Positions 4,206-60,885 of a DNA stretch of 64,000 nucleotides are shown here, piece after piece. Numbering within the stretch: the first letter of the stretch is position 1; each line of letters opens with the position of its first letter. A program made the translations under genes and the position numbers. Origin of the DNA: Schmidtea polychroa (Eukaryota); contig CM097887.1 in the NCBI GenBank assembly GCA_044892525.1, positions 61,566,001-61,630,000 on the forward strand. Reading direction: 5' to 3'. The notes below the pieces were generated by a model that saw nothing but the letters and a program-made list of their open reading frames with translations, made no database searches and had not been told where the DNA came from.

Positions 4206-4356
4206 ATAAAATAAGTTGTTAATGTGTGACTATTTATTGATGAAATTGATAATTAATTATTCATTTTCTCGACAACTACCACTCAGATCCATCTGAAAAT
4301 TTAAATATATACTAAAATCAGTACGCTGAATCAGATTCCGTTGAAAAAAAATATCG

Positions 4357-4440
4357 AAAAAAATTGACCAAAATCGAAAATTGAACCCGGTACTCCCGGT
4401 GATAAAATTGAAGCCTATTCCCACTCCGCTATAATGGCTT
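4357..4440 (-). ncRNA. tRNA-like Pol III cassette 3
   Basis: Minus strand: A box TAGCGGAGTGG (4421-4431), TTATCACCGGGAGTACCGGGTTCAATT (resembles the tRNA-Asp 3' half; degenerate B box), then GGTCAA and a T run. It is a diverged tandem duplicate of cassette 2 and its flank. Confidence 0.55.
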
Positions 4441-4494
4441 ACATAATATATTTAATTAATCCTATTTTGTGTGTGTAAATTTTAATATATAAAA

Positions 4495-5781: not shown

Positions 5782-5810
5782 TATAATCCCTGATATTTTA
5801 ACATTTTAAA

Positions 5811-7220
5811 ATGTCTCTAAATAAATATTGGAGATGTGAAAGTTGTAATTGTCAAGTTACAAGACATCATAAAGCAAGTCATTTAAAAACTAAAAAACAT
5901 ACAGGAGGTGATCTAATTCCACGAGCTAGAGGCGATTTGCAATCTTCAAAAACAACATCTTCAATATTAAAACCTTTTACTACAGAAAAATATCCAGGTG
6001 AAAGACATTTATTTAAACACAACTATACCGGACCAGGAACAAGATTAGATATTAGATTAGATGAAAATAATAATCCTAAACAAGGAGAAGAACCAATAAA
6101 TAGAATCGACCAAGCAGCTTTAAAACATGACATTGCATACAATTCAACAAATCTTAGAGATAGACATGTTGCAGATGTGAATTTAATACATGATTTAAAT
6201 AGTATCCAAAATCCATCAACCCAAGAAAAGATTCAAAGAGCTCTAGTTAAATTAGCAATGAAAGGTAAGATTTTCATAGGCTTAGGACACAGTCCGATCA
6301 CCATGGGTGCAAGACTTCCTAGGAAAGCAAAAGATGTTGCTTATAAAAAGATTATCGAACAAGCAGAGATTGAAAGATCCCTCGAGAGTACAGCCAAGAC
6401 TAGTTTACAAACCCCAACAGAATCAGAAATAAAATATGCAAAGGAATTACACCATGAATTTAGAAAAAATAAAAAATATTTAAAAGTTCAAGTACATGAA
6501 AAAGATCAAACATGGTCTGCAGATTTAGTCTTTATGCCCAAATCATCAGACCCTGAAAAATATAAAATAATTTTAACTGTAATAGATTTATATACAAGAT
6601 TTGCTTTTGCAAGATGTTTAGAAAATAAAACAGGATATTCTATTACAGAAGCATTTGAAAATATATTTGAAGAAAATCAAAGAATCCCAAAATATTTATG
6701 GTGTGATAAAGGAACAGAATTTTATAACAAAGTTTTTACAAAGTTTTTAAATGAAAATGATATTAAATTATATTCAACAGAAAACGAAGGAAAAGCAGTC
6801 GTAGTTGAAAGATTAAATAGAACATTAAAAAATAAAATGTGGAAATATTTTACTGCTATTGGAAAACAAAAATGGAACAATGAATTGTTACAAAAGATTG
6901 TAAATGAATATAATAATGATGTACATAGTTCTATAAAATTAACACCTTTAAATGCTTCCATGAAGCCTGAAACCATTAAAGTGGTAAATATTGAAAATGA
7001 TGTTATTGAAAAACCAAAGTTTAAAATTGGTGACCGAGTAAGAATATTTAAATATAAAAATAAATTTGAAAAAGGATTCACAGCAAAATGGACAAATGAA
7101 ATTTTTATTATAAATAAAATACATTATACAACTCCAATAACATATACCATCTTTGATTTAAATAATGAAAAAATATTAGGTAGATTTTATAATAATGAAC
7201 TACAGAAAACAGATTTTTAA
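5811..7220 (+). CDS. Zn-finger / parvovirus-type PLA2 / retroviral-like integrase fusion
   Basis: CxxC..H..H N-terminus; NYTGPG, DQAALKHDIAY, RHVAD (PLA2); WSADL, VIDLYTR, WCDKGTEF, VVERLNRTLK (DDE integrase); KFKIGDRVRI C-terminal domain. Confidence 0.9.
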   Translation: MSLNKYWRCESCNCQVTRHHKASHLKTKKHTGGDLIPRARGDLQSSKTTSSILKPFTTEKYPGERHLFKHNYTGPGTRLDIRLDENNNPKQGEEPINRIDQAALKHDIAYNSTNLRDRHVADVNLIHDLNSIQNPSTQEKIQRALVKLAMKGKIFIGLGHSPITMGARLPRKAKDVAYKKIIEQAEIERSLESTAKTSLQTPTESEIKYAKELHHEFRKNKKYLKVQVHEKDQTWSADLVFMPKSSDPEKYKIILTVIDLYTRFAFARCLENKTGYSITEAFENIFEENQRIPKYLWCDKGTEFYNKVFTKFLNENDIKLYSTENEGKAVVVERLNRTLKNKMWKYFTAIGKQKWNNELLQKIVNEYNNDVHSSIKLTPLNASMKPETIKVVNIENDVIEKPKFKIGDRVRIFKYKNKFEKGFTAKWTNEIFIINKIHYTTPITYTIFDLNNEKILGRFYNNELQKTDF

Positions 7221-7231
7221 GTCGACAAGCC

Positions 7232-8077
7232 CTAAAACAAACTTTTCCATATTTCAGCTTCTTCTCTATCCAAATAAATATAATTATATTTTTCTTTCCA
7301 ATGATTATCAACAAACATATCAAACATATTCTTATCAGGTTCAACATTTGAAAATAAATCATTATAAATCATATTCTTATCACGGCGATCTAATTTAAAA
7401 AATATAAAACAATTGGAATTATTTCTTATTGAATTTTTATCTAAAGCATAATATGTTTGAGATATATAAATAACATTACAATTATTATGTCGACCTCGTG
7501 TAAAGTAACTCTTTTGAATCTCTTGATTTTTCATGTTGACAACATCATCAAATATAACTAGATTCTTTTTATCTTTAGGAAGTAAATCACAATGTAAAAC
7601 ATCTTCAGGTTTATTAGAGAATAAAACTTGAATTGCCTCCTGCCCTTCTTCACAAATATAATCATTTTTATTACTAATATCTGATTCTAAAATCTTTTCC
7701 TTATACCAATCAACCATATCACAAGGTTGAAAAACTTCTTCAGGACACCTATGTTGATTTTTAAAAATATCAATTATTGCTTTTTTAGTTAATTTATTTT
7801 CAAATCCACATTTCAAAAGTTGTAATTCTGGTTGATTTATGGTTGTAGAATAAAAGATTAAATTATTATAATCTAAAAAATCATCTTCAAGTAACATTCT
7901 CAAAACAAGTACATTCATTCCACATCCAGAAGAACCAACAATTAATAATCTAAAATTATCAGGAAATACTTTATTATTAAATTTACTTTTATGTCTATTT
8001 AAAATTGGTTTCCAAATTATTGGACTTCGTACATCCATTTTGTTTATTATAAAATGACAACTGAAGAATCTTTGCAA
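7232..8077 (-). CDS. A32-like DNA packaging ATPase
   Basis: LIVGSSGCG(M/N) Walker A with the Lys missing, LVIFDD Walker B, RGRHNN motif. Confidence 0.9.
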   Translation of the reverse strand: MQRFFSCHFIINKMDVRSPIIWKPILNRHKSKFNNKVFPDNFRLLIVGSSGCGMNVLVLRMLLEDDFLDYNNLIFYSTTINQPELQLLKCGFENKLTKKAIIDIFKNQHRCPEEVFQPCDMVDWYKEKILESDISNKNDYICEEGQEAIQVLFSNKPEDVLHCDLLPKDKKNLVIFDDVVNMKNQEIQKSYFTRGRHNNCNVIYISQTYYALDKNSIRNNSNCFIFFKLDRRDKNMIYNDLFSNVEPDKNMFDMFVDNHWKEKYNYIYLDREEAEIWKSLF

Positions 8078-8632
8078 GAATTAATAAATTCAAATAAAAA
8101 TAAATCAGTAGTAATTGATGGTAAAAAATATTTTATTGGAAAACATGTAAAAGAACAAGTTAGAGCGAAGCTCCACGAATCTAAAGAAGGTGGCATTCTT
8201 CCATTAGCTGCTTTAATACCTGCAATCATTGCTGGTTTATCAGGTGCTGCTGGAATAGCTGGAGGAATTGCAACTACAGTTCAAAAAGCTAAAGAATCTC
8301 AAAAGACAGACCTAGAAAAAGAAAAACTACAAACTGAAATCGATTCAATGAAGAAGGTAGGGCAAGCTAAAGGGGGAGTGTCCGTTGGAAAGGGTCTCTA
8401 TCTTAATCCATATGAGGGGAGTCGGCAAAAGTCTCAGGGCAAAGGTCTCTATCTTGATCCTTATAAAGGTAGAGGTTTAAATGATTTTTTAAAAAATCAA
8501 ATTTCTACATCTGAATCTTTATCTTCAAAAGATAAAGAAGATTTAAAAAAAATATGTAAATCTTTAAAGAATGGATGCCTTTGTAAAACTAAAAATGGTA
8601 AAGGATTATACTTGAAGCCCTTCGAACTATGA
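8054..8632 (+). CDS. Putative virion core/precursor protein
   Basis: GGILPLAALIPAIIAGL hydrophobic segment and repeated G(K/R)GLYL.P motifs typical of small Polinton structural precursors. Confidence 0.6.
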   Translation: MTTEESLQELINSNKNKSVVIDGKKYFIGKHVKEQVRAKLHESKEGGILPLAALIPAIIAGLSGAAGIAGGIATTVQKAKESQKTDLEKEKLQTEIDSMKKVGQAKGGVSVGKGLYLNPYEGSRQKSQGKGLYLDPYKGRGLNDFLKNQISTSESLSSKDKEDLKKICKSLKNGCLCKTKNGKGLYLKPFEL

Positions 8633-8654
8633 TACCATTTTTGATACCATTAAA

Positions 8655-35300: not shown

Positions 35301-35900
35301 AACCGATGGATTAGTAGAGAGGTTTAACGGGACATTATTAAGTAGATTAGCGGTTTTTGTGGGAAAAAATCAAAATGACTGGGATGAATATGTTAGTCAA
35401 TGCTCGTACATTCATAATATCACACCTAATGAAACTACAGGGTACTCACCATATTTCTTAATGTTTTTAAGAGAACCAGCAACACCAATCGATACAATTT
35501 TTGAACCACGAGTATCACAATATTTAGATGCGCCAGATTACGTAACACTGATGCAAGAACGAATGCAAGAAGTGTATAAAGTAGCTAATCTAAAAGTAAA
35601 ATTCAGACAAGAGCAATATAAAGCTGATTACGATAGGACATGTAAACCGCATACTTTTAAAGTGGGAGATAAGGTTAGACTTATGTCACCACAAGTAGGA
35701 AAAGGAAAAACAACAAAATTAGCAAGACCATTTAAAGGTCCATACGAGGTAGTAAAAGTAGTGCACGAAAATTTACATTTACAAAGACACAAAAATGAGG
35801 ACCCTATCATAGTACATGTTAACAGATGTAAACTTGCAGAAACAGAAATAACAGTAGAACCACCCCATAAATACAGTTTACGATCACAGAAAGGGTTGAT
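32400..35900 (+). pseudogene. Pol: aspartic protease, RT, RNase H, integrase
   Basis: ALVDTGA; SQWASPIVPVKKKDG..CIDYRKLN; YMND (YxDD mutated); MADASGKAVGAVL..IRTDHKPL; HHCC zinc finger, D-D-E, GPY. In-frame TAA at 32511-32513; frameshifts at ~33955 and ~35118. Confidence 0.95.
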
Positions 35901-36849
35901 GATGTCAACAATTTTTCTAACAATTATTGGACTTGTTAATTCAATCGATATTAAATATTTAACAGAATTTATAGGAGATAAAGAGATCCTAATAAACATT
36001 TCGCCATACGAAATCAATGTATTTAACTTAAATAGAATGCCAATAAGGGATTTATACCTAGAAACAACCAATGATACACCAATCAGACTAATGGAGAAAA
36101 GGGAAGAAAGATCCACTAATGAATTCGAAAAAGGGGATATCGTTAAATTTATAAACTTAAAACCCAACACAGAATACACCCTATGTGCACAATGGAACCT
36201 AGAGATGCATACATCACAAATAAAATGTAAAAAAATAACAACACTACAACAAAAAAAGCAGAAAATAACCAAACGAATTAACATAAGTACAATGCTCAAA
36301 ACAACTATGTCAACTACTACCTTAAGCACAACAACTACTCAAAAAACCGTTCAAACAATAACAAGTACAGATGTAACAACTGAGTACAAAACAAGAAAAC
36401 AAGCATATATAAAATTTGTAAGAGCAACACCATGGCAAATAAAGGAAAAAATAAAGTTACCACCGGGAAAACCCGTCGTGATAAGTAATTGGGATGAATT
36501 ACAAGCTTTTCAAACAAAAACACTCAAACCATGTTGGTCCTTTTATGTAATGTCAGCAAGCATCCTAGCAGTAGCAATTCTAGCAATAGCACTAGTATAC
36601 AAATCTACAAAAAATACAAGTGGAAACGGCAGCGGTATCGGCACCGACTGGTCAATAGTATACCAGGGCAGTTTCACTTGGACAGAGATATACCAGGGCA
36701 ATATACAATGTCCACTTGAGTGTAATAATTTCATAAAATGGTCAATAATATTAAATAAAATCACATATATAAATATTTATAAAAAAAGTGCGTATAAGGT
36801 TAAACCCACAATGCGCAATCAATATGTATATTTACATTTCCTTTTTTGA
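35899..36849 (+). CDS. Signal peptide / FN3-like / Thr-rich stalk / TM module fused in frame to the integrase C-terminus
   Basis: Within ORF 35104-36849: MMSTIFLTIIGLVNS, LKPNTEYTLC, TTMSTTTLSTTTT, FYVMSASILAVAILAIALVY. Confidence 0.65.
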   Translation: MMSTIFLTIIGLVNSIDIKYLTEFIGDKEILINISPYEINVFNLNRMPIRDLYLETTNDTPIRLMEKREERSTNEFEKGDIVKFINLKPNTEYTLCAQWNLEMHTSQIKCKKITTLQQKKQKITKRINISTMLKTTMSTTTLSTTTTQKTVQTITSTDVTTEYKTRKQAYIKFVRATPWQIKEKIKLPPGKPVVISNWDELQAFQTKTLKPCWSFYVMSASILAVAILAIALVYKSTKNTSGNGSGIGTDWSIVYQGSFTWTEIYQGNIQCPLECNNFIKWSIILNKITYINIYKKSAYKVKPTMRNQYVYLHFLF

Positions 36850-36879
36850 ACAGAAATCAATAGAATAGCAATATCGACA

Positions 36880-38676
36880 ATGCAATCCAATTTCCCAAAC
36901 AATCAGTTCAATAATCAACAATCAATGAAAAAATATTCATTTACAATCCATAAACATTATCATAGTTTTTATAAGAATCTCCAAAACAAAATCAGTACAG
37001 ATGGCTCACCCATAACAATTAGAAGCTTCCCAAACCAAGTCTGCATACCCAACGACATGAAAATTGAAATAGAAAAAAGAGAGATGCATTTGATCAAATT
37101 CAACGAAGCTCGAAGAGTCAAGCTAAGAGAGCTGATCGGGACATATGATCGTTACCCTAATGTCGAAAATGCAGTAAGAGAGGGAAAAAAGGTACCACAT
37201 CGTATCTTATTCCATATGACCAAAACAGAGGTCTCAATATCTCAGCAGAAGATTCCAATAATCACAAAAAGCAACTGTACAACGGTCATGAAGACCATCA
37301 ACAACAACCGAAGCATGCCAAATGAATTCAATGAGCTGACAGTGCAAATGAACAACCTACCCTGTGTAATAGCCATCGAGGTGCTATATATCCCAACAAT
37401 TCCAAACCCATTCAGAGAGCTCCAATTAATTAAATCCAACATCATAATATATCAAGATTTCATAACAAAGAAAGTGTCATTCACACATCAAGATCTCCCC
37501 ATACCCGAGAGACAACAGAAAATTGTATTCGTAGATGTCAAAGAGATATGCGACATCAACAACAACCTCAGATCGGTGGAGGTATGTATCCGAAATTTCC
37601 GAGGAGAGATTATATACAGAAAACAAATAACACCCCGAACAAAAGTGTGGCACTATTATCCCGAAAAAACAAAAGCAGATCGAGATTCAATCATAGGGAA
37701 CGAGGACGAATATCGAGCTTTGGTAGATATACAAGATCTACTCCTCGAAAAATTTATAGTGGGTTACGACATCATGAGCAAGCTGAGAACTCTGACATTA
37801 GATTTATACAATATCATGGGAGTGAGGGAGATGGCAGCAGATAGATTTAAGTGCTCATTCGTAAAGAACATCGCACCACACAAAATACGATTATCAAACC
37901 TCGCATTCCAAGTGATAGCAACCCATCAAAAATGGCGAAAGGACAAGAAAATCAATGAGATCCTGAAAAGACCAGAACCATTTTCAACAGAATATACCAC
38001 CCTCATTTTTAAGGTGACTTACCAAATTGTGGAAAAACAATTGGAAGAAGTCATACATTGGGAGATTACACAATTTCAAAAAGACGAAAATAACCAGGGC
38101 TATCAACTCAGTGAGAGGAGAGAAACCAGTGATGAGCTAGAATCAGACGATGAAGATATATATATCGAGCCATCGCAAGTAGAATTAAAATTTCGAAAAG
38201 ATGGAAGGCGGAGAACATGTGAAGACGAGTTATTGGACGACGATAGCGACGACGATCTTATTTTTGTGAAACAAGAAAATAGTACAATTCAGCTTACAAC
38301 TATCAAAAGAGAACCAGGGACTAGCAATAAATTTGGAGAGATACAATGCGACCTGGATTCAGACAAAGAATATTTCTCAATAGAAGAAGAGACGGAGGAC
38401 GATTATAAAATGCAAATAGAAGAAGTAGAGGAGGAATTGGGACCAGAGCCAAATATCGCGTTAGAAGAGCCGAACTTTATAATTGAAAAAGACAAAGGTA
38501 TGATCTCAGAGAAAGACATATGTCGTCATTTCGGAAGACGAATTAACGAAGGAGACATACTGAATTTGGCCTTGGAAAAAGGATTTCGGAGAACAGTGAT
38601 GAAAGCAAGGGACTGTGAGATCGAATTAGTAATCTGCGATAAAGGTAATGAGGACATTACCTTGACGGCCCTGTGA
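36880..38676 (+). CDS. Accessory ORF with a degenerate REX4/ISG20-like DEDDh fold and acidic tail (598 aa)
   Basis: KIVFVDVKEI..VEVCIRNFRGEIIYRKQITP..LLEKFIVGYDIMSKL..GVREMA aligns by eye to REX4/ISG20 Exo motifs, with catalytic acidic residues replaced. Confidence 0.6.
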   Translation: MQSNFPNNQFNNQQSMKKYSFTIHKHYHSFYKNLQNKISTDGSPITIRSFPNQVCIPNDMKIEIEKREMHLIKFNEARRVKLRELIGTYDRYPNVENAVREGKKVPHRILFHMTKTEVSISQQKIPIITKSNCTTVMKTINNNRSMPNEFNELTVQMNNLPCVIAIEVLYIPTIPNPFRELQLIKSNIIIYQDFITKKVSFTHQDLPIPERQQKIVFVDVKEICDINNNLRSVEVCIRNFRGEIIYRKQITPRTKVWHYYPEKTKADRDSIIGNEDEYRALVDIQDLLLEKFIVGYDIMSKLRTLTLDLYNIMGVREMAADRFKCSFVKNIAPHKIRLSNLAFQVIATHQKWRKDKKINEILKRPEPFSTEYTTLIFKVTYQIVEKQLEEVIHWEITQFQKDENNQGYQLSERRETSDELESDDEDIYIEPSQVELKFRKDGRRRTCEDELLDDDSDDDLIFVKQENSTIQLTTIKREPGTSNKFGEIQCDLDSDKEYFSIEEETEDDYKMQIEEVEEELGPEPNIALEEPNFIIEKDKGMISEKDICRHFGRRINEGDILNLALEKGFRRTVMKARDCEIELVICDKGNEDITLTAL

Positions 38677-38680
38677 GGAA

Positions 38681-39770
38681 TGTTGGATGACAGGGGTCGA
38701 AGAATTGAAAAATTCGAGTTAACAAAGTATTATCAAACAGGCCCGAATCGATACCGGGTGAATATATTCGCAGAAAGAAGACTGTTTCCAAACAATCAAG
38801 CGTGATTTAACAATTACTATATTAAGAGACAAATATGATTTAATCTTTCTAACAATAATGAATCTTTGGGATTGTATATTTTATAACAATTTATATCCTC
38901 ATCTTTATTTTATTGTATATGGTATAAGCTGCATATTTTATTTTAGATTGTATCTTTCATTTTTATCTGCTGTATAGATTCACATTTTATTTTTTTTTAT
39001 ATTGTAGTAATTCATATTTTATTTTTTTACAACGTAGTAATTTATACTCTTATATCCTTTTGTACAATATATTATAATAATTTATATTTTAATTACATTT
39101 AAATAATCCACAAAAAAGGGAAATATAAAATCTGGGTAAATAAAGAAACAATTTATTAAGTAAATAAGGAAGGTCGCAGTTGGGAAATAACCCATGTGTG
39201 AGTTCTGAATAAATAAAAAGAAGAGAGGGAAATTTGGTAAATAAACAAGAGAAGTAGTTTTGAGTCCGTTTGAATGTGGGTATTGTGTAAAAACAAATAA
39301 ATGGGGTTTTCTTATGTGGATTGAGTAAACAAAAATTCAGTATATATACTGAACCAAAAATCACAAAATTCGCCCAAAAAATAAGCGATTAGTACTGCTT
39401 TAGAAGGTAAATCCTTACAAAGCATAAAAATCAGACAGACACTACAAAAACGTCTAAAGGTTATTACAAGCAACACAACACGCACATATAACACGCACAT
39501 ATAACACGCACATATAACACGCACACACAAAACACAACACGCATCGTGAAAGTAAATCAAAAAGAGTTTGAAGGGAATAATTGATTGTAAAAGAGTTTGA
39601 AACGAGAGATTGATTTTGAAGTTATTCAAGCCGATAATTTGAATTGGTAAAAAATTTTATATTAATAAATTTTAGTTACAAATTTGGCCTTTGTATTTTC
39701 ATATTTATATATTTATATAGTTATAACCAGTGCACGTTGGGTTTCAATAAATATTATTGAGACCTCAACA
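38681..39770 (+). repeat. 3' LTR (1,090 bp)
   Basis: TGTTG...CAACA, preceded by a short purine run GAGGAA. Confidence 0.95.
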
Positions 39771-41422: not shown

Positions 41423-42496
41423 ATTAAATTTGTTTCTGCTTATTATTTGTTTTATGTGTTTGTTTAAATGAATTGGCACTTGAACGTTTTTAATTTGGTG
41501 GATTGTTATAGGTTTGAATCCCATCTGCATATATTTGTATAGTTTTGATTTGTTTGTATCCATTATACAGTGCTTATTACAACACGATGATGTGGAATAA
41601 CACACGCGTATAACATTGATTTGACAAATCTCTCGCTACTCTCATTGTCAATTACCTGACTTTCTGACACATTTGAGGCAACCTCAATTAATTGCTATTT
41701 AATAAAATGCATTAGGCGTATTTCACATCATCACATTGAAGTACTTCATCAAAATGCGTTATTAAATATCCAAAATTGACAATCCTTTGTCCCACAATAA
41801 AGTCAAAAATTACGAAATCAAGTTTTAGCATGTTATTTTTAATATTAAACAAACACTAGAATAGAAACCACCAGATTATAATGTCAAATTGTTAATGACA
41901 TTCTTTCTCTTAGACAATATTTTCATGAGACAGCATCTTCACGTCCAAAACAAACATTAAAGTTGATTAAAAGTAATATTTATGAGCTTGAATAATGTTC
42001 TTATATCACTATATATTTTTTTCTCTTGGCTGTTATTTCCAAATAAAATTCATGATTGCAAAAAAATAATGGTTTAGATACCAACATGTACTATAAATGG
42101 GATTATTCCGTTCAAATGGGTGTAATATAGGTTTTAACAAGTGGTAGGAAAAACTAATGAAAAATAAAAACACAGCATTCGTAATTTCTATAATAAAACA
42201 AAAAAAATAAGCAAAACCTCTTAAAAAATACACATTTCTACGAATTTAATTTTTTTAATGAACTATCTCAATGTTCACTTTTGTAAAATTATAATTACTC
42301 ATTTTTTGTATGTAAATACTGCCAACTCACTCAATAAAATTATTATATTTTGCCAAGCAGCGTAATATATAAGGTGACTTAATATTTTCGATATTGAAAA
42401 TGATAATTAAATATATATGCAATCAATCACAAATTCTGCCATATAACTTTAATTATATTTACTGTTAATCGACTTTTCCTCAATAAAATCGCATTT

Positions 42497-43060
42497 ATGG
42501 AGGAAATTATAGAAAATGTGAAACCTGGAGTTAAAACATCATATTATTTAGAATATACATTTGTAGCTGCTGCTAGTGAAGGGAAAATGAGAGCTTTAGC
42601 GCGTTTAAATGGTGAAAGAATTGACGTTAACTGCCGAGATGCTCTTGGTAGAACTGGTCTTCACTGGGCTTGTCAAAATGGGCATTTTGATATTGTTAAA
42701 TATTTATTGGCGAATAAAGCAGAAAAAGACATTGTAGATGCTGATCTTATCACGCCTCTTCATTTGGCTGCCTTGAATCAGCATCTCAAATGTGTTCAAA
42801 TGCTTGTTTTGGCACAATCTAATTTGAACGCTTGTACTAAATCTGGTTGCAGACCTAAGGATTTGTGTCCATATGAATCCGCTACTTGGTGGGTGTTGAC
42901 ACGTGCCGAAGAAGGTGAATATCCCGACCCGTTAGTTTTTCCAGGCCCATCAGATTTACCTTTTGTTCCTAAATACGCGTTACCAAAAAGACCTGAAACT
43001 CCCGAAGATGAACGGAAACGTAAAGCCGCAATGAATAAACAAAAGAAACCTAAAAAATAA
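42497..43060 (+). CDS. Ankyrin-repeat protein (187 aa, single exon)
   Basis: GRTGLHWACQNGHFDIVKYLL and LITPLHLAALNQHLKCVQMLV ankyrin repeats. Confidence 0.9.
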   Translation: MEEIIENVKPGVKTSYYLEYTFVAAASEGKMRALARLNGERIDVNCRDALGRTGLHWACQNGHFDIVKYLLANKAEKDIVDADLITPLHLAALNQHLKCVQMLVLAQSNLNACTKSGCRPKDLCPYESATWWVLTRAEEGEYPDPLVFPGPSDLPFVPKYALPKRPETPEDERKRKAAMNKQKKPKK

Positions 43061-46615: not shown

Positions 46616-48959
46616 CTTATGATTGTGTTGGGCTAGAACTGACTTCTAGACCCAAATTTCTAATTGTGACCGAAATGTGTAGGTACACAGCATGCAAAAA
46701 GCAAAAAGTATAGTTAAATATTAAAAACTACACCAAATAACCAATAGTAATTAAAGGAAAAAACAACAAAAACCTAAAACACAGAAAATCTAACTCAAAA
46801 ATAACCAAATAAACATAGAGTTACAAAAAACAAACTCGAATAACTTAAAAGATGGTAAAAACAGTAAAAGAGTCCAGAAAAACCCAGAACATTCCATAAA
46901 AATGGCGATGACCATCATAAAAGCTACCTTAAACAATAAAATTTAGGAAAAAATAAATAATTAGTAATAAAAATAAAAAATCTTAAAAAGAAATTCATAG
47001 AACAGCAGTTAAAATGAAAATTGTATTAAAAAATAAAATAGAATGTTCTGGAACCGTTCCAAATCCATCATGGACGTAAAATTAACGAAAAATAATTAAA
47101 AAATAAAAATTTAAAAATAAAAAAAAAATTATGGCACAAAAATCGCCATTAAAAATATCAAAATCACGAAATAGAAAATTCTGGAATAAAAAGAATTCGA
47201 GTTTGTTTTAATGCATCAATACATACACGTGTACAAAATAGGTATATATACCGACGCATTTTGGTCACAATTTAATCTTTTTGTATGCCAAAAAATTTTT
47301 TCTTAGAAACTTCGAGTAATACTGAAAGTAAGGACTATTGATTGATTTTATATCATAACTGTATTTCATTATTATTATGTTCATTATATTGATTAACGTT
47401 TTGTCCTTTTGTTTAATTCTACTATTACAGAACAAGAGTGACCAGCGTCGTCGTAGACGGATTATATCCACGACGCTGATCAGCCTTGTTTCCAATTAAT
47501 AGTCCACACACACACACAATCGGGTCTACGACCCTACATGCACAAAATTTCATTTTTTTTTAACCGGAAGGTCGCCACGAACAAATGGTTTCTAACCAGG
47601 AGTAGGGCGGTAAATCCATCCAGGTAGTTGGCATAGTCGCAGGGACTATGCGGACGAAATAAAATTTGGGCTAGTAATCGCGGGAAACATAATACAATAA
47701 GGCCTATCGTACCGTATTCAGTTGAGTCGGGAAAGTAGGAAAATTTTAATTAATTCGACCTTCCGGTAAACGACATATCTAAAATACACACTCAACTATT
47801 CTATAGGAATACATCATTAAGAAAATCTAAACGGGAAATATCCCAGACTTAAATGATCACGAAAGTTCTCAAGTAGTCGGCTAATTACACAAACTATTCA
47901 AATGTTTAATATTTTTGATATCAAATATTATTAATTTACTCTTATCGATATTACTGGTAATCATATTTAAATCCGAAAGTCTATAATCAAAAAGCCAGAA
48001 TCTAATTTAAATGCGATGGTGTAATTATTCTTGGATAACGATTTTAAACCCATGTGAGCCAAACTTGTGCTTCATATAATTTTAGGTTAATGTGGACATT
48101 ATATTCCAAACCGATATCATTAGAATGTATTTCAGGGAGATATATGCCTATACTAATTATTAACTTGGTACTAGATAAAAGATTTTCTACATATACCTAC
48201 TAGTATCAACATCACCTGACTATTTTAGAGATGTATATATTAGTTGATTAAAAGGAATCTGCCCTACCCAAAGGACGTTCTCTAAACATATACCCGGTAG
48301 CCCATTTTTTGGTTAATAGAGATTTGTTATTAAACCCCACCCTCTAGAATCGTGTTATAAGAATTTATCTATTAACATTTATATGAATGTGACTAATTAT
48401 TATATAATGACTCTCAGATCATTCCATGAAAGTTCTCCTGTTCATCGTCATACCTACTATATACTGGCTAGGTAAATACTTTAAAAATTAAAATATAATC
48501 CTTAATTCATATCTATTCGAATAATTATAAATCATCACTTTAGTTATTCAAAGTGTTTTTATGTTTATTGCCTTACCTAGTAAGCATCGGTTATATAACT
48601 GCTTAGAATTAAAACAGAGTCCTCATTTTGGGGCCATATGAATGCCCTTAAATGCCTAAATTAGTTCAAAGTTTTTGTCATACATATACTAGTTATATAG
48701 ATACTATAAAATAAAATATGATTTTTGGTTCATGTCTATTTGCCTAATTATAGGATAACCCTTAATCAATTCTGTAAAGATTTTGTGTTTACTGTAGTGT
48801 ATATTATATAAATACTTTAGAAATTTTTAAAACTCAACCGTATTTTTCCCATAATTATGATAATGATATGTATATATTTCGATTGTAAAAATCTTCTATA
48901 ACTACCCCTTCGAATCATATAGTCGTCAATTGAATTATTCTAGGACAACAACTCCTACT

Positions 48960-49270
48960 ATCATTCCTATTAACATCATTAGCATTATTATTATTGTTAC
49001 CATTACTATTGCTATAATTATTATTATGGTTATTATCATATCACTACTATTATTATCATTATTATTAATACTATTATTTTTCCCAGCATTATCATTAGCA
49101 TTATCATTATTAATACCATTGCTATTACCATAATTATCATTATGGTTATTATTAATAGTACTGTTATTATTAGTATTATTGTTATTATCATTATTATTAT
49201 CATTACCATTATTATTATTATTATTATTACCCTTAATATTATTATTATTATTAGTAACATGATTATCAAT
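48960..49270. repeat. (ATT)n microsatellite of copy C
   Basis: Imperfect ATT run. Confidence 0.9.
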
Positions 49271-51434
49271 AAAACGTTACTATTAATAGGAAAGTTCAAA
49301 ACCGACAGTATCGATTTTTTCTTTCCCTCATAACAAAGTTGGACCAATAATACCGCTTCTATTATTAGTAACAACCCTGCAAACCAAGGGTTACCCCTAC
49401 GAACTACTCCTAACTGACTGAATAGCACATACTCTCCCCTACACGAGCCAATCGCCATCGACCATGTCAGTAGGAACTCTAATCTTTCGATAAAACCTAT
49501 CTCACCCATGCGAATTTAACCCTTGTTACCCCAGAAGTAGAACGCATGTAAGCCACGGGACCTAGTCCCCGAAAGTGACGGTCTGAATCGGAATACCCAC
49601 CCAGTAGGACCAAAAGTAAGGAGTAATAACAAGTCGTGATTACTAACTATATAGGTTCTCATGGGGAGTTAACAAAATTACTCGATAATTATTAATTTAC
49701 GTCAAACAAAATTACTTAAATAAGAATCAACAAAAGCGAAAATGTATTTAATAAAATCAAAAATTTTGTTTACGAAACCATTCTAATCACAAAAAGAATC
49801 TTACCGGTAACATTAAGGAATGTCTAGAGAGGGGACTACTCAGAACAACCGAGTCCCAATTTTCACTTTAAATTCCTGTGGCACAGATCAGTAAAATCCT
49901 GAAACCACCATAAATCCCCAAAATTTTCACCTAAATGCCCACGAATTGGAAGTATAGCCATACTTTGGATTCCACTAAACAGTAATAACTCCAATACGGT
50001 GAATGATTGAAATCCTAAAAATCGAGGAATTAGAGACCCACTCCTGAAATTATGCAACTACAAAAGATAAAAATTTTAACTTACTATCGAGCACCAGCTG
50101 ATGAAAGGGCCACTTACAACCACTATGGTCAGGGATTCACAAAGAGTTGAATACAAATTCATACAATTTGCAACCTCCGCTTCCCATAGTGGGTCCTAGT
50201 AGCATAAATTTTACCAAAAAAAAAAATTATCCATGGAGGATTCTAAAAAATTGAAAAATAATATTTGAATAAATAGTTAAATTAAAACTTTGAATGATTT
50301 AAACAACCACTATTAAAAGTTTAATATTTGAATTAATATAGATTAGTATAAATAGTTAAATTAAATCTTTGCATGATTTAGACAACTACTATTAAAAGTT
50401 TAATTTATAAAATTTTAAACGCTCACTTCTACTGTATCAACCAGTAGTTCATCAAAACTAAGTTCATGGATTTCCACTTTAAATATACGAACTACAATTC
50501 TGTAACCGAGACTTATAAACTTGGATTTCGTAAGTCTCAAGCCAACTTAAATTAAATTAAAGAAGAAATCGAAAGGGGAAATTAATTAGCATTTTAGGTC
50601 CATTTTCCCTACCTAAGATATCGTGGAGATGCGGGTCGCGTTTATCTTAAATGTAACTGTACATTGAACGTCTTAGAGTAACCGAACGTAAATGGGAGAA
50701 CGAGGATTCGTTTTAACCTCTCTTTTATCATTACAGCCATGCCCAACACTGAGCCAAGGAAAGTACAAGAAGGTCACTCGTCAAATGACTGGAGCCTCGA
50801 CAGTATCGGCGGGGAGGCAGACGAAGCCGTCCGACTGAGGGAGGAAGCAGAAATTGCCAGGCTAAGGTCTAGATGGATCTAGTACAAGATCCATGACTGG
50901 ACCTACCAGAATGTGATCCCAGTGACCCCGAAGGTGGAACCATATATCAACCGCACCTCGTTGGCTTTGCTCGACGCATTCGACGATGCGAAGGAGGCGG
51001 TGGACCGGTTGCACCGGCTCGAGGTAGCAACCCTAGCCGGCGAGCTCGAAGATATCGATGGTTACGCTCGAGCCCAATGGCATCCTGAGCGGACCGCAGC
51101 CCTCCGCCGTGGGCTGTGGTGGGTTACAGGTACTGAAAAATCTTTACCCCCTCATGCTGTTTCCAGCGTAACCCAGAATACAATTTATAGTTGACCACTT
51201 GATACCCGTTGAGCAATCAACGTTGGTACTGTATCAAGGGCTTGGGCACTAGCAAAAAGTGAGCATGCTTAGCATACTATAATTGTCTAGTACCCACTGG
51301 GGTTCACGGACTGCCGATAGAAGGCCTATGTCCGTTTTTCTTTGTCCTTATTCCGAAAATCAACATTATGGCAAATTCGAAATACCCAGATATGAATACA
51401 CCCATAATATTTATTCACAACACAAAATCAAAAC

Positions 51435-51896
51435 TCATAGGGTTATAGTCGGTTCTTTCGGTGCAGACTCCGACGAAGTAGCCTTGAGCGTCGCTTGGGC
51501 CTGACAGGCTTGGCGGATTTTCGCCCGCGCCGCTTTACCCGGCCGGATCTTCTTCTTCGGGATCTTCGACGCTGCGCATTCCTTTCGTTGGTGGAGCAGC
51601 TCATCCATAGGGCGGATCCTGGAGATGACCTCTCGATCAAGGTTTTGTTGGTGCGACTGGACTTCTAGCTCTCTCACCCTCAGGCGGAGGGCCCGCAACT
51701 CAACTTGATCTTGGGCGCTCTGGAGTTGCAACTGGGTGATGAGTTTCATTCGCTTCTTCATATCTGTGGGCGGGAACCAGGTGCCCTCGAAGTTTCGGCA
51801 ATGGGCCTTAAGTCGCGTTAACTTGGCCCTATACTCTTCTACCTGTTGTTGCGCCCTCTCTCTGTCGGCTCTCATTTCTTCCAGGAGTTTTATCAC
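51435..51896 (-). CDS. ORF-A, copy B
   Basis: Homolog of 20971-21429. Confidence 0.7.
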   Translation of the reverse strand: MIKLLEEMRADRERAQQQVEEYRAKLTRLKAHCRNFEGTWFPPTDMKKRMKLITQLQLQSAQDQVELRALRLRVRELEVQSHQQNLDREVISRIRPMDELLHQRKECAASKIPKKKIRPGKAARAKIRQACQAQATLKATSSESAPKEPTITL

Positions 51897-52323
51897 TGAA
51901 ATAAATAAAAATTAGTATCTTTTCACACTTTCGTCAAGTATCCACGTTATATCGCTAACACCATTGTGGCAAAAGTCATAATCTCCCCGTCGCAGCCCGC
52001 ATCCGTGCGCACCTAAACCCCAACTCCGGTCTTATGAGTTTCACTAAGATGTTATGAGGTTGGTGATAATCGTCAACATCTAAAGGAATACCAGTATATA
52101 CGTATACAATAAGGAAATTCGAACAATTAACTTAGTATTAACAAACAAAACATAAAATAACAACATTTTCACATAAGTTAAGAGAAAATCAAATGCAGAA
52201 TTGCAAGACAATCACACTTTACACTGCGATGATAACGAAGTCGAGACATACTAATCATTATAGTGAGTAAGAGTCCACTCGAAGTCGTATCACAAGGCGC
52301 GGATATTTGGCCCGGCGATTATC

Positions 52324-52782
52324 TTAGTTGAATTGGGCGGTTTTCCGCGGACGCCCACGTTTTCTCGCCGGTACCGCTCCCCGTCGAGGAGTTCCTAAGT
52401 ACTCCAGCTCCCGGCGAAGAGCTGCGGTCCGCTTTGGGTGGCACTGGGCTCGGGCGTAGCCGTCGATGTCTTCCAACTCGCCGGCCAGGACTGAGGTTTC
52501 GAGCCGGTCCAGCCGGTCCACCGCCTCCTTCACATTGTCGAAGGCATCACTCAGAGCCAGTGACGTATAATTAATATACGGTTCGATCTTCGGGGTCACT
52601 GGAACCACATTCTGATAGGTCCAATCGTGGATTTTGTACCATATCCACCGGGACCTTAGGCGGGCAACCTCTGCATCTTCCCGTAGTCGTACGGCTTCGT
52701 CTGTTTCCTCGCTTGGTGGTCCGCGGCTTGAATCGGAGGATGAGGGTCCGGCCTGTGCGTTCCATATCATGGTGTTGGGCAT
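52324..52782 (-). CDS. ORF-B (AT-hook), copy B
   Basis: Homolog of 21856-22335, ending RKRGRPRKTAQFN. Confidence 0.7.
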   Translation of the reverse strand: MPNTMIWNAQAGPSSSDSSRGPPSEETDEAVRLREDAEVARLRSRWIWYKIHDWTYQNVVPVTPKIEPYINYTSLALSDAFDNVKEAVDRLDRLETSVLAGELEDIDGYARAQCHPKRTAALRRELEYLGTPRRGAVPARKRGRPRKTAQFN

Positions 52783-54254
52783 ATCTGTAATGATAAAGGG
52801 ACATTAACACGACTCCCTGTCCATCCAACTACGGGGTTAGTCAAAAACGTCTGAATACACTTTCACCACTCACATTTTAGCATAATATACATTTCACCCA
52901 ACAGTTCACCCACTCGACAATAGTCTTACGGATTTGATAATTAATACAATAAAAATGGGTAATTTACATTTTATAAATTATATTTAAAGTTCAATTTTAA
53001 TGAAATAAATTTAAAGTCACCCTTACTGCTTTAGTAAGTAATACCCTAAAATTGGGTAATTTACATTTTTTAAATTAAATTTAAAGTCTGATTTTAATGG
53101 AATAAATTTAAAGTCACCCTTACTGGTTTGGTAATTAATATCATAAAAATGGGTAATTTACGTTTTATAAATTAAAGCTAAAATTATTCATTTTAGAATC
53201 CGTTGTTTAAGTTAATTAAAATTTTAATTTGTTAACTTACTATATAGCCAGTAAATTAAAAAGAAAAACTTGGAACCAGTATGGTCAGTGGAATTTATGC
53301 TGCTCTGACCCACTATGGAAAGCGGATATTGCAAATTGACTGAATTTACATTCAGCTCTTTGTGAATCCCTGACCATAGTGGTTGTAAGTGGCTCATTCA
53401 TCAGCTGATATTCGACGGGTAAGTCAACCTTTCATTTTTTAAATTTGTCTAGTTTTAGAAATGGGTTTTCAAGCCCTCCATTTTGGACATGGCATTTCAG
53501 GCAGTTAACATGTTGGGGTTATTGTCGCTTGGTATTAATCCCAGATATGCCTATATACTCAATTCGTGGGGCATTTAAGTGGGAATTTTGGGAATTTATA
53601 TTTGTTTCGGAAATTTTTCTTTCCTCGATTTATATGCCATGGTAATTTAAAACAACAATTGGACCCCGAGGGTTTCCGAGTAGCCCTCTTCTACTCATTC
53701 CTTGGTATTACTGGTGAGACTCTTTTACTTGCTAGGATGGTTTCGTAAGCAAATATTGTTGATTTCATTAAATATATTTTCACTTTTGTTGCATCTCATT
53801 CAAGTAATTTTTATGTATCGTAAAGTAATTTATCAAGTAATTTGGTTAACTCTTCCGGGAAATATGCATAATTAGCAATCATGAATTATTATTATTCCTA
53901 ACTTTCGATCCTACTGGGCAGGTATTCTAATTCAGGTCGTTGCTCTCGGGGACCCGGTCCCTTGGCATACATGAGATCTACTTCTGGGTAACAGGGTGAA
54001 GTCTGCCAGTGTCCTGGTTTTCATATACAGATTGGAGTTATCACCACTTTAGTTGACGTTGATTGGTCCGTTCTTGAGAGAGTATGTATCACCCATTCGG
54101 TTAGTTAGGAGTAGTTCGTAGGGGTTAACCCTTGGTTTGTAGGGTTGTTACTAATAATAGAAGCGGTATTATTGGTCTAACTTTGAAAAAAAAAATCGAT
54201 ATTGTCGGTTTCGAATTTTCCTATTAATAGTAACATGCCATATATAATCATGTT

Positions 54255-54256
54255 AC

Positions 54257-54291
<35 letters not shown>

Positions 54292-54304
54292 TTAAAGGTA
54301 ATAA

Positions 54305-54336
<32 letters not shown>

Positions 54337-54477
54337 AATTAATAGCATTAGTAATGATAATGATGATGGTAATGATAATCGTAATGATAATAACAATGAT
54401 AATTTTTAATAATAATGATTATAGTAATAGAGATAGTAATACTAGTGATACTTTACCAATAATAATAATGATAATAC

Positions 54478-54514
<37 letters not shown>

Positions 54515-54530
54515 CATAATCGTAACACCA
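54255..54530. repeat. (AAT)n microsatellite of copy B
   Basis: Imperfect AAT run. Confidence 0.9.
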
Positions 54531-57407
54531 AAGACAATACAACAGCAATGTTAATAATGGCGATAACGATAAGGTTAATCCTGATAAAAAGTGTAAGTTT
54601 TATGCAGTGGGTAATAGATGTATAATCCAGGGGGGGGGGTGTTCATGAAATTATTAGTTTACCATTTTAAAGACTAAGTATATATTGAATAGGTTACTTT
54701 CAGATATTAGTATAATAGATAATGAAGGTAGGATTCAGGGGGGGATGTTTATGAATATTTATAAATTAGTGATTCCATATTATATAAGCTAAATATATAT
54801 AAAAATAAGTGAACCTAGGACAATTAGGTAAATATATAATTTAGGGGCTAATTATGTAGATTTATAAATTATCATTTTAACATTTTGTAAGTTGAATATA
54901 TATCAAAATAAATTAGGATATCTAGGTATTGGACGATAGATATATAGTTCAGAGGATCATCTATGAAAATTTATAAACTATCATTTTTATATTTTATAAG
55001 TTAAATATATATACCCAAATAAGTTAGGATCTTTCTATATGAACATTTATAAACTGTCATTTTAATATTTCATAAGTTAAATATATACATCAGAATAAGT
55101 TAGGATATTGATGAATAAATATATAGTTCAAAGAACCATTTATGAAACTAGGTAAGTTATACATATTCCAGTGGGGTTATAACCATGAACTGGTGGTTTG
55201 ACGACTTTGTGACATTGGCAAGAAAGATTACCTTTTCTTTAAGTTTAATATACCGCTATATGCAATTACATACTGATGGTAAGGACACACTCTCTATGAA
55301 GACAACGAGAAAAGGGTGTTGAGGATAATGATAATAATCCTGGAGGTGATAGTACTATTAAGGCAAAATAGAATTCTTAAGGATTTCAATACCCGTAAGG
55401 TAATTATAAAGACTTGTAATTAATACATCATTGAACGTGATTATCTTTAAAATCGAACATAATTATGAATAATATCAATAAAATCTAATAACAATAGTTA
55501 ATATTGAGCATATTGAATAATAGTTTGTGCAATTAGCCGACTACTTGATAACTTTTGTGATAAATTGAGTCTGGGATTTTTCCCGTTTAGCTGTTCCTAA
55601 TGATGTATTTCCTATAGAATATTTGAGTGTGTAATTTAGATGTGTCGTTTACCGGAAGGTCGAATTAATTAAAATTTTCCTACTTTCCCGATTCAACTGA
55701 ATACGGTACGATAGGCCTTATTGTAATATGTTTCCCGCGATTACTTGCCCGCATTTTATTTCGTCCGCATAGTCCCTGCGACTATGCCAACTACCTGGAT
55801 GGATTTACCGCCCTACTCCTGGTTAGAAACCATTTGTTCGTGGCGACCTTCCGGTTAAAAATTTGAAATTTGGTGCATGTGAGGTCGTAGACCCGTATAG
55901 TGCATGTGAAATAATTAGTGGGAGCAAGGCTGATCAGCGTCGTGGATGCCATCCGTTTATGACGACGCTGGTCACTCTTGTTCAGTAATAGAAAAAAAAA
56001 TCAACAAGATAAAAATATAATAAACATAATAATAATGCAATACAAATAAAAATGAAATTAATCAACAGTCCTTACTTTCAGTGTGGTCCAAAATTTCGGA
56101 AAAAAAAATTTTTGGCATACAAGAATATCTGAATTGTGACGAAAATGCGTCGGTATATATACCTATTTTGTACACGTGTATGTATTGATGCATTAAAACA
56201 AACTCGAATTCTTTTTATTCCAGAACTTTCTATTTTGTAATTTTGATATTTTTAATGGCGATTTTTGCGTCATAATTTTTATTTTTATTTTTAAAATTTT
56301 ATTTCCTAAATATTTTTTGCTACTTTTTCCTCCATGATGGATTTGGAACGGTTCCAGAACATTCCATATTACTTTTAATTCAATTTTTATTTTTAACTGA
56401 TATTCTACGAATTTCTTTTTAAGAAATTTTATTTTTAATACTAATTTATTTATTTTCTACATTTTATTGTTTAAGGTAGCTTTTATGATGGTCATCGCCA
56501 TTTTTATGGAATGTTCTGGGTTTTTCGGGAATTTTTTGCTATTTTTACCATCTTTTAAGTTATTCGAGTTTGTTTTTTGTAACTCTGTGTTTATTTGGCT
56601 ATTTTGAGTTAGATTTTGCATATCTTCTTGTTTTTGTATAATTTTATTTAATTTCTGTGTTTTAGGTTTTGTTGTTTTTTTTTTCCTTTAATTACTATTG
56701 GTTATTTGGTGTAGTTTTTAATATTTAACTATACTTTTTGCTTTTTACATGTTGTGTACCTACGCATTTCAGTCACAATTAGAAGTTTGGGTCTAGAAAT
56801 CAGTTCTAGCCCAACAGCTGGAATGGCCGCGAAGTCCCTATCGAGAGCCGGGTCGAGCACGAAAGCGCGGTCGCCCACGAAAGATCAATCTAGTCTAATC
56901 AAAGTGATAACCGGATCAAGAGTCAGCACTGTGCTGTACCGTGCCGTGAACAAATTCACATTGATATATGACCGGTATTCGGTTTAATAAAATTTACGAT
57001 TTGCATGTATTGATTTCGACTTCTAAATGTACATTATTGTTTAACTCGATAAACGTCCTTTGTTACTCATTTATGTCTTGTATACTAATCTAATTGTGAA
57101 CATTTTCTTTATTTGGGTAATTAAAGTTAACTGGCATCCTCATTGATTATGCCCACCTGATGTTATTAGTCTGTTATTACTCGTAATCCAGTTATAGTTT
57201 TTTTTTCACGTAGTTTGACCACTATACATCTAAGGGTTAGTATTCATACCAACACCATGAGTCTTTGACTCCTAGGAGTAGAACGGGGTTTAGAGGCACA
57301 TAAATGCGGGGTTGCGGGGTGAGGATAGTGACTCATTTAGCGATGGTGGCCGTGATAGGGCAAGAATACATCGACAATAATGTAGAAGGAATTGATGTTA
57401 CCTTTGT

Positions 57408-57876
57408 TTTAGTGCTGAAACTCATGGAAGAGATGCGAGCCGATAGAGAGCGGGCGCAACAACAAGCAGAGGAATACCGGGTCAAGCTAGCACGAGTCAA
57501 GGCCCACTGCCGGAATTTCGATTGCACCTGGTTCCCGCCAGCCGAAATGAAAAAGCGGATGAAGTTAATCACTCAACTACAACTCCAGAGTGCACAAGAT
57601 CAGGTTGAGTTGCGGGCCCTCCGTCTGAGAGTGAGGGAGCTGGAGGTCAAGGCACACCAACAGGACCTTGATCGAGAGGTCATAGCCAAGATCCGACCCA
57701 TGAGTGAGCTGCTCCACCAATCGAAGGAAGGCACCCTAACAACAGCAATCCCGAGGAAGAAAATTCGGCCGGGTAAAGCGGCGCGAGCGAGAATAAGGCA
57801 AGCCAGCCAGGCCCAATTAACTCTCCACTCTACTGGATCAGGGGCTACCCCAATAGAATCGACAAGGAAACTATAA
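57408..57876 (+). CDS. ORF-A, copy C
   Basis: Homology to the other copies begins at TTTTAG|TGCTGAAACTC. The upstream part of the predicted 190-aa ORF is not conserved. Confidence 0.7.
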
Positions 57877-58468
57877 GTTGTCCATGTTATCCAAATAAAT
57901 CTTTACTGGTGTATCCATGTCTGTACATTTTGAATTTTTTTGTTGTTTGTTGTTGATTATTGCCGCGGGGACGAAAAGAAATTGGACATAGACCTTCTAT
58001 CGGCAGTCCGTGAACCCCAGTGGGCACTAGACAATTATAGTATGTTAAGCATGCTCACTTTTTGCTAGTGCCCAAACCCTTGATACAGTACCAACGTTGA
58101 TTGCTCAACGGGTATCAAGTGGTCAGCTATAAATTGTATTCTGGGTTACGCTGGAAACAGCATGAGGGGGTAAAGATTTTTCAGTACCTGTAACCCACCA
58201 ATTGTCTTGGGACATTTACGAGTTGAATTAGAATATTAGGATTTTTTCTTAATTTTACTAATCTGAGAATGAATCGAAGATTAAAATTCCAATGAGTCAC
58301 GAAGTCTCGATCCGCGCGCATATTTTCCGTCAACCTAATCACTAAATTTAGGTAATTACACAGACAGCAGAAATTAGTCTTTAATAATTTAGTCTAATTC
58401 GGTTGGATACTATTACATTATAGCAAGAAATCATTAGGGTGTACTAGGATAAATACTGATAATAAATA

Positions 58469-59559: not shown

Positions 59560-60885
59560 ATGTCAAATGAACGGAAGATATACGTGGGCAACTTACCTCC
59601 GGATTCCACGTCCAGAGACATAGAAAAGTTATTCAGTTGTTTTGGTAAAATAATAGACATTGACATAAAAAATCGGAATGGCCCACCATTTGCTTTTATT
59701 CAATTTGATGATCGAAGGTACTTTACCTTTAGAGGTTGCAACGTTAACTAGTCACATTAAATCTTTTTTTTCCATTTTAGAGATGCCGAGGATGCTATTA
59801 GAGAACGAGATAATTATGACTTGGAGGGATTTTCATTGCGAGTCGAGTTTCCAAGGGAGATTAAACAGAATAAAAAAGACTATAAAGAATATTCTAGATA
59901 CGAGAACCCGTTATACGCACCGCCGTTTGATCCATATGACATGTACTTACCGTATAATTATGGACCATTTCCAAGGCAGGATAGATTTCAATATTATGGG
60001 GATTACAGGCGTAACAATAACTACAACAATTATTCATATCAAAATCGAAGACCGAGACCTCCTAAAAGTACTGATTATCGGGTTTTTATTTCAAATATAC
60101 CGCCATACTCTAATTGGCAGGATATAAAGGATTTTATGAGGAGGTATGGCGATGTAAGCTATGCAGATGTATTTGGAAACGGAACCGGTGTTTGTGATTT
60201 TGTGTCGAAAGAGGATTTTAGATACGTGTTGAAATATGTTAACAACGTTAAATTTAAAACAGTTTCGGTAATAATTAATTTAATTTACATTAATTATTAA
60301 TTTAATTAATATAATAATTTAATTGTGGATTTTATATTATAAATATTTTGTACAGAATATACAGTTCATTTTATAACCAATATTCATGGGGGCAAATTAG
60401 GTTTTTTATTCAATTATAAATTGTGGAAAGTTTCAATTTTAAACTGGTAAAAAGCTTCGGTTAAAACAAATGAAATAATTATTTCGTCTCATTGATATAT
60501 TCAATTTACTTTTAAGAATTGTACTTGGATTGCTGTAGGATTTTACTTCTGTCATTTATTTTTGAAAACTATCAAGTAAACTTTAATTATCAATCAAGCT
60601 TTGACAGATTAATTGCAAAGAAAATACTGATATTTTATCTATTTGATATTCTAGGGTCAAACTTCATATATCAAAGTTGAGGAAGATAAAACTAGAAAGA
60701 GAAGTTACCATAAAAGATCACCTCGAATGCATAATAAATCGAGAAGCAGATCAAGGTCGAAAAGTAAATCGAGAAGTAGTAAATCGTCTCATTCAACTAC
60801 TCGAGATAAAAGTTCAACTAGTTCAGAGAGGTCAAAGAGTGGTCGAAAACGGATTTCCAAATCCAGATCAAATGAGAATGATTAA
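59560..60885 (+). CDS. SR splicing factor, SRSF1/SRSF9-like (RRM-RRMH-RS), 3 exons
   Basis: IYVGNLPPD..PPFAFIQFDD, NWQDIKDFMR, |GQTSYIKVE, RS tail. Exons 59560-59717, 59781-60267, 60655-60885. Confidence 0.9.

Follow-up and report, generated by a model that had tools for sequence, protein, structure and literature searches.

The window analysed here is a stretch of 64,000 nucleotides from Schmidtea polychroa, and all coordinates refer to it. Positions 20271-39770 are occupied by a decayed Ty3/gypsy LTR retrotransposon of the GAG-ENV-POL type, approximately 13.5 kb in size once a 5.95-kb insertion in its 5' LTR is subtracted. Its parts are as follows.

20271-20649, + strand: first piece of the 5' LTR; TG start, 4-bp target duplication shared with the 3' end
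20650-26602, strand not assigned (.): insertion splitting the 5' LTR; 5.95 kb, TG...CA, 4-bp duplication, without long ORF
26603-27317, + strand: 5' LTR, second piece; ends CA
27320-27337, + strand: putative primer-binding site; TGG start, two bases past the 5' LTR, no tRNA assigned
27589-28563, + strand: Gag; weak Retrotrans_gag/PNMA match, zinc knuckle, stop at 28006-28008
29770-30045, + strand: Bcl-2-like domain; PF00452 E 3.3e-6, 28 bits, below the 31.4 cut-off
30196-32117, + strand: class III (Monjiviricetes/gB-type) fusion glycoprotein with its TM region, after an internal signal segment; PF24664 E 1.4e-73
32418-35850, + strand: PR-RT-RNase H-integrase and GPY region; Pfam matches in that order
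35872-35889, + strand: Y-x-L-R motif closing the integrase region; common to relatives
35899-35943, + strand: internal signal-like segment; by hydropathy
35944-36250, + strand: FN3-like beta-sandwich of about 100 residues; two Cys, two N-glycan sequons
36259-36540, + strand: basic, Ser/Thr-rich stalk; core 36286-36396
36541-36597, + strand: transmembrane (TM) helix; 19-residue hydropathy 2.54, frameshift near 36590
36594-36719, + strand: short basic cytoplasmic tail; other frame in the window copy, closes after 41 codons
36720-36879, + strand: spacer of 160 bases; acceptor-like site (pyrimidine tract and YAG) ending at 36853
36880-38676, + strand: separate ORF with a DEDDh (RNase T/ISG20-like) exonuclease fold, at about 37520-38025, and an acidic tail
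38681-39770, + strand: 3' LTR; TG...CA

Paired TG...CA LTRs, a target-site duplication and the PR-RT-RNase H-integrase order are those of Ty3/gypsy elements (Metaviridae), and a class III fusogen between Gag and Pol is the arrangement of the gB-type GAG-ENV-POL errantiviruses. The two LTRs are 1.09 kb each, and their alignment shows 9 differences over 1089 places and 2 gaps; a check for a polypurine tract upstream of the 3' LTR gave a short purine-rich run only. Seven frame breaks, three stops and four frameshifts, interrupt the coding parts. Besides those listed above for Gag and the TM helix, the fusogen ORF is broken by a stop (30604-30606) and a frameshift (near 30912-31017), and Pol by a stop (32511-32513) and by frameshifts near 33938-33983 and 35089-35122. 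The window copy is dead and is only a record of the element plan; it lacks the intact ORFs of the listed errantiviruses and is a decayed copy of the kind. The Bcl-2-like stretch has a weak match (E 0.007) to the same slot of L001, a related metagenomic element, while a PDB sequence search with it gave no match of that family. A second Y-x-L-R motif (27553-27576) lies in frame directly upstream of the first Gag ATG, and the Gag start may therefore be earlier or non-ATG.

The insertion in the 5' LTR is probably the solo LTR of another, larger (giant) element; further copies of this 5.95-kb TG...CA repeat are present at about 46627-51116, 51118-56815 and 57404-58199 of the window. The window also holds a Maverick/Polinton at about 2960-17733, with terminal inverted repeats, a double jelly-roll capsid, an integrase with a PLA2-like domain, an A32 ATPase, a protease-like ORF and a broken polymerase-like gene, as well as two host genes, one for an ankyrin-repeat protein (42407-43060) and one for an RRM protein of the SR type (59761-60300).

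The region 35899-36597 continues the frame of the integrase core and GPY domain (ORF 35089-36849). A signal-like segment, a Thr-rich stalk and a TM segment had been predicted here in frame, and all three are borne out by the ORF, by hydropathy and by composition. The signal-like segment has 18 uncharged residues and a best 8-residue hydropathy of 2.85, inside the range of 2.29-3.86 for all 14 such segments scored in the element and its relatives, and Ser/Thr make up 21 of the 37 residues of the stalk core. Together with the PF24664 fusogen, this type I module gives two membrane proteins in one element, as the original prediction held. The Y-x-L-R motif after the integrase is found in 8 of 12 proteins checked and presumably resembles the chromatin-binding motif of foamy viruses. 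The role of the foamy-virus motif, rather than the post-integrase pattern described here, is the subject of PMC6042332 in its consulted sections.

The head of the module had been predicted to be an FN3-like segment. Its L-x-P-x-T-x-Y motif is located at 36157-36177, a pattern before strand F which we take to be an FN3 signature, and a single-sequence model (pLDDT 66.7) has seven strands. Foldseek searches with this model have a best E of 8.9e-3, with FN3 or fibronectin in 5 of the first 10 titles, and no match at E<=0.001. VIA gives Z scores of 6.2-7.9, the top row being a non-FN3 sandwich tied with FN3 rows, and Atlas scores of 0.86-0.89, a level that serves only as a lead, come with the fn3 family or clan in 10 of the 10 best family-assigned matches. 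A Pfam fn3 search returned nothing at E<=10, a PDB sequence search no match, and a search of the viral fold library nothing with E at or below 0.001. FN3 domains usually carry a Trp in strand B, which is missing here. The motif of the prediction is present and a Pfam fn3 match is absent; for the seven-strand model FN3 rows predominate, at modest pLDDT, Z below 8 and Foldseek E of at least 0.009. The agreement of several results, each weak, suggests an FN3-like head.

The cytoplasmic tail was originally placed at 36601-36849. That stretch is out of frame, other copies being in another register near 36590, and it is rejected. Contigs in the other register account for all depth in run X5 and for a minor contig in X4, with none in X1 and X2. 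The loose ends of diverged contigs from X2 and X4 (four contigs each; by eye) give open, hydrophobic sequence in the other register alone, whereas the window's register runs into two stops there. In that other register the first 20 codons of 36594-36719 hold 8 K/R, versus 2 in the annotated frame; K/R counts past ten TM helices scored in relatives range from 1 to 10 (median 5.5). From the contigs in the other register, the open hydrophobic ends and the basic 41-codon tail it follows that the annotated tail is a frameshift product of the window copy, and the sequence of TM helix and then basic residues expected of a type I protein is found with the tail in the other frame. An alternative in which a stop at 36847 is private to the window copy and the tail runs into the exonuclease was dropped on seeing the frameshift near 36590.

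Presence of the module in other copies had been named beforehand as a check, and it was found: contigs join integrase and module in three of four runs from two studies, one of which may be the window's own source, and distant relatives carry the module too. The contigs joining the integrase end to the module differ from the window at 13 of 798, 14 of 682 and 12 of 915 letters. In three runs (X1, X2, X4) most of the TM helix is missing from a contig. Only two of the seven module differences listed fall on third codon positions, 40 of 967 differences being shown. Both observations speak against retained function within this host family. The acceptor-like site in the spacer is a candidate drawn from the sequence alone; the same rule finds one such site in the 11.4-kb internal region and none in L001.

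A search with integrase plus module against 1.84 billion proteins listed 150 matches, all via the integrase; 72 extend at least 100 residues past it, and 10 of these 72 have a strongly hydrophobic segment there. An integrase tree was built from 61 rows, namely the window, L001 and the best-scoring matches, the other 91 matches being left out, with module labels assigned by hydropathy and by eye. The window falls inside a 14-row clade (support 99/96), in which eight rows (window, L001, P0006, P0010, P0011, P0015, P0020 and P0022) have signal...TM after the integrase. The heads are FN3-like in seven of the eight and Cys-rich in P0010. In the remaining six rows the record shows no module; five come from contigs 1.2-3.0 kb long and the sixth from one of 8.4 kb, so that loss is not separable from truncation. 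A sister trio (P0034, P0069, P0115) has a signal and other ectodomains after the integrase, and P0026 has a signal-like run immediately before the end of its record. All 11 labelled rows fall in one 19-row group, whose support (90/78) is not strong; the label requires eight changes on the tree, a number as low being reached in 12 of 500 shuffles. Outside that group, the integrase of P0092 is followed by a chromodomain, then a long ectodomain with a TM segment, an arrangement taken from its sequence to be probably an ordinary downstream Env.

Of the 11 module-bearing elements, five have a record that reaches before Pol (window, L001, P0020, P0022 and P0069), and all five have PF24664. L001, P0020 and P0022 each encode Env, Pol and the module without a break in a single ORF. 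The single frame of intact relatives reads (Gag, Bcl-2-like), signal, Env, TM, Pol, signal, one to three FN3, stalk, TM and short basic tail. L001 is a 12.9-kb metagenome contig with a single 3426-aa ORF and two signal...TM cassettes, in the order Bcl-2-like slot, signal, Env, TM, protease-like repeats, signal-FN3-stalk-TM, Pol, Y-x-L-R and signal-FN3-FN3-stalk-TM. Its extra cassette lies at about 4750-5310, between Env and protease and flanked by protease-like repeats, and a separate exonuclease ORF follows the polyprotein, as in the window. Extra protease-like repeats are also seen between integrase and signal in P0006, P0003, P0014 and P0020, with ankyrin repeats too in P0006. The 2627-aa Gag-Env-Pol-module polyprotein of P0022 is assigned to a Flavobacteriaceae MAG; the contig is most likely eukaryotic and binned by mistake. 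Locus scans of viral contigs and of prokaryote genomes gave nothing, and that of metagenomes gave one locus. With its tail corrected, the module is real and clade-wide.

The heads of the relatives are better defined. A profile of eight of their domains matches neogenin (E 2.6e-4), fibronectin (E 4.5e-4) and tenascin (E 1.9e-4). The L001 head domain is modelled at pLDDT 85, with a fibronectin FN3 as its best match (Z 8.9, rmsd 2.3 over 83 residues) and a best Foldseek E of 5e-3. A profile built without L001 recovers two of the three L001 domains (E 4e-7 and 6e-10), and leave-one-element-out profiles find 9 of 11 domains, with 0 of 300 shuffles as high (boundaries by eye). Both the profiles and the model identify the heads of the relatives as FN3. 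The window head scores 4.5 bits against the relatives' profile, with 20 of 1000 shuffles as high, and in a second test against the relatives' domains 248 of 500 shuffles are as high; ordinary host FN3 domains reach the same level with that profile (4.1 and 7.8 bits). Either the window head is a very diverged FN3, or another domain has replaced the original one in that slot.

Pairs of elements are 52-84% identical in RT, 40-76% in integrase and 46-58% in the C-terminal half of Env, versus 13-37% in the FN3 heads, a near-random level; shuffled heads have a mean identity of 18 and a maximum of 29. Fast divergence of a receptor-binding protein beside a slow fusion protein is a familiar viral pattern. 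Throughout the clade the slot after the integrase persists, but the head it holds evolves fast, occurs in repeats (one to three FN3) or is swapped for other folds. The original prediction of a captured host receptor-like module is not supported in the sense of a traceable donor, given that a homolog search with the module alone gave 0 of 619 candidates, that the window head scores at host-FN3 level, and that the slot is common to the whole clade. Because a host donor was not found, the module is taken to be old cargo rather than a recent capture.

The exonuclease ORF downstream has an Atlas score of 0.94 to RNase_T, an E of 0.56 to ISG20 and homology to the L001 exonuclease (E 7e-11). D-x-K replaces the catalytic D-x-E (ExoI) in all three window-family members (window, P0151 and P0152), whereas the L001 exonuclease (10617-12107) has D-x-E intact and lies above the Pfam RNase_T cut-off. 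The window-family ORFs, with their altered catalytic motif, are 52-55% identical. From its motif the window exonuclease is probably inactive, possibly a pseudo-nuclease. In the gene models of P0151 and P0152 the exonuclease ORF is fused with exons that resemble host genes, in P0151 a biotin carboxylase; these fusions are likely annotation chimeras. An exonuclease-like stretch is seen by eye at the N-terminus of P0069.

The module may be a second type I glycoprotein on the particle, serving attachment or tropism beside the class III fusogen, a tentative reading to which we give a little under an even chance. The attachment role is proposed because a fixed fusogen with a fast-changing head on a stalk looks like split entry systems, and the head-on-stalk geometry with a short tail also counts for it. 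The chain would thread the ER membrane with Gag in the cytosol, Env in the lumen, Pol in the cytosol, the FN3 head in the lumen and the basic tail back in the cytosol. Signal peptidase would release the head in the lumen, and the element's protease would cut the integrase from the signal near Y-x-L-R. Module and Env would be produced in a one-to-one ratio, and the module would travel with Env into budding particles, where the head on its glycosylated stalk could bind a host cell-surface molecule and leave fusion to Env. In a fuller and more doubtful form of this reading, possible rather than probable, the entry apparatus would be split between a conserved fusogen and a swappable FN3-headed attachment protein made from one Gag-Env-Pol polyprotein, the latter occupying the post-integrase slot that is usually that of Env. 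If so, stem or germ cell tropism would evolve in the attachment cassette, which is changed, repeated or duplicated, with the fusogen fixed.

Several observations count against attachment. Rhabdovirus G and baculovirus GP64, both class III fusogens, attach and fuse unaided, so that such a fusogen can do without an attachment partner. Accessory proteins in conflict with the host would be expected to change fast and swap domains just as much, and the clade has Bcl-2-like, exonuclease and ankyrin cargo. The window head is not tied to the relatives by sequence; module-less rows, TM-skipping contigs, the less than strong support of the 19-row group and the eight label changes on the tree weigh in the same direction. 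A complex prediction for the Env ectodomain and the last FN3 domain of L001, made without alignments and with the partner fold uncertain, scored 0.00 and counts neither for nor against a pairing.

The module might instead be an accessory protein at the surface or in the ER of the producing cell that, by imitating or binding host receptors, damps defence, blocks superinfection by sister elements or aids cell-cell spread, and is dispensable on the particle; it would then be akin to viral Ig/FN3-fold immune modulators. We consider this rather unlikely, though it fits the host-directed cargo gathered by the clade (the Bcl-2-like domain, present also in Burro according to the consulted sections of PMC6431247, the exonuclease ORF and the ankyrin repeats of P0006) and the fast-diverging, interchangeable heads (one to three FN3, Cys-rich in P0010, other folds in P0034, P0115 and P0069). 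Against it, the module shares a chain with Gag, Env and Pol and would therefore be made at structural-protein amounts, its stalk suits reach from a particle surface, and its slot is retained more steadily than other cargo. Should the module be such a host modulator, it would still be a new class of retroelement accessory gene.

A topological device, in which signal and TM tether the Pol C-terminus to the budding membrane for packaging and the head rides along as a stable domain that does little by itself, appears improbable. Signal and TM are indeed constant where the heads are near-random in sequence, and the diverged same-host contigs match from the TM end onward and not before. A signal anchor alone, however, would hold Pol, and a folded FN3 with kept Cys, up to three repeats and a second whole cassette in L001 exceed the needs of a tether. 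Chance read-through, or a functionless host fragment hitch-hiking in one decayed copy, could account for the seven frame breaks, the weakness of every FN3 test on the window's own domain and the few third-position differences, but is very improbable and largely refuted by the relatives, since the same ordered architecture recurs in seven other clade elements at 40-47% integrase identity to the window, the same downstream exonuclease ORF follows in L001, introns are absent and a donor was not found.

The Pol tail in these elements conceals an unannotated surface protein that Pfam misses. The closest described element is Smed_errantivirus_3 (Chary and Hayashi, PMC13524379), which, as far as its published description was consulted, shares with the window element its gene order, class III fusogen and Ty3/gypsy Pol; 69 of 83 Env residues are identical (by eye, supplement row). 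Intact ORFs are the listing criterion in that paper, where Smed_errantivirus_3 has 3 intact copies, whereas the window copy is broken. Its consulted sections describe no membrane protein after the integrase; the main text makes no mention of fibronectin, FN3, Bcl or exonuclease, and the text of seven supplements, figures aside, none of fibronectin or FN3. The same sections recall that herpesvirus gB needs other glycoproteins and call the entry of gB-type errantiviruses unknown. The module is a named candidate for this missing attachment step, testable in a planarian model.

The giant planarian retrotransposons Burro/GYPSM1, as covered in the consulted part of a review (PMC6431247), also have Gag, a Bcl-2-like domain and Env in frame before Pol in one polyprotein, with accessory domains. 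A putative Bcl-2-like domain stands before Env in the window element, the position it has in Burro, with a PF00452 match below the curated cut-off. Burro exceeds 30 kb, whereas the window element, with its 1.09-kb LTRs, is not of giant size. The BIR, MATH, ankyrin, AAA and dUTPase domains of Burro, published as HHpred calls, have no Pfam match in the window element, and that part of the review names no membrane module after the integrase for Burro. Extra 3' ORFs encoding small TM proteins and DEDD exonucleases are likewise found in the rotifer elements Vesta, Juno and TelKA (PMC5408684); in the consulted text their ORF3 is separate and replaces Env, the exonucleases are DEDDy and fibronectin is not mentioned. 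The GAG-ENV-POL order, the Bcl-2-like cargo and the exonuclease cargo are thus already published, going by the consulted parts of PMC13524379, PMC6431247 and PMC5408684. The literature searched, with Sacco et al. 2022, Grohme et al. 2018 and Repbase outside its scope, has no description of a post-integrase membrane module.

Unlike the rotifer elements, the window element has a fusogen and a second TM protein together, the latter fused to Pol, and a DEDDh-type ORF behind. Entry is split in herpesviruses (gD and gH/gL with gB) and in paramyxoviruses (HN, H or G with F), and flaviviruses process a polyprotein with internal signals. The pairing of a conserved fusogen with a variable head-on-stalk protein, as in herpesvirus gD, gH/gL and gB and in paramyxovirus HN/H/G and F, would by analogy be at work in the present clade as read from its sequences.
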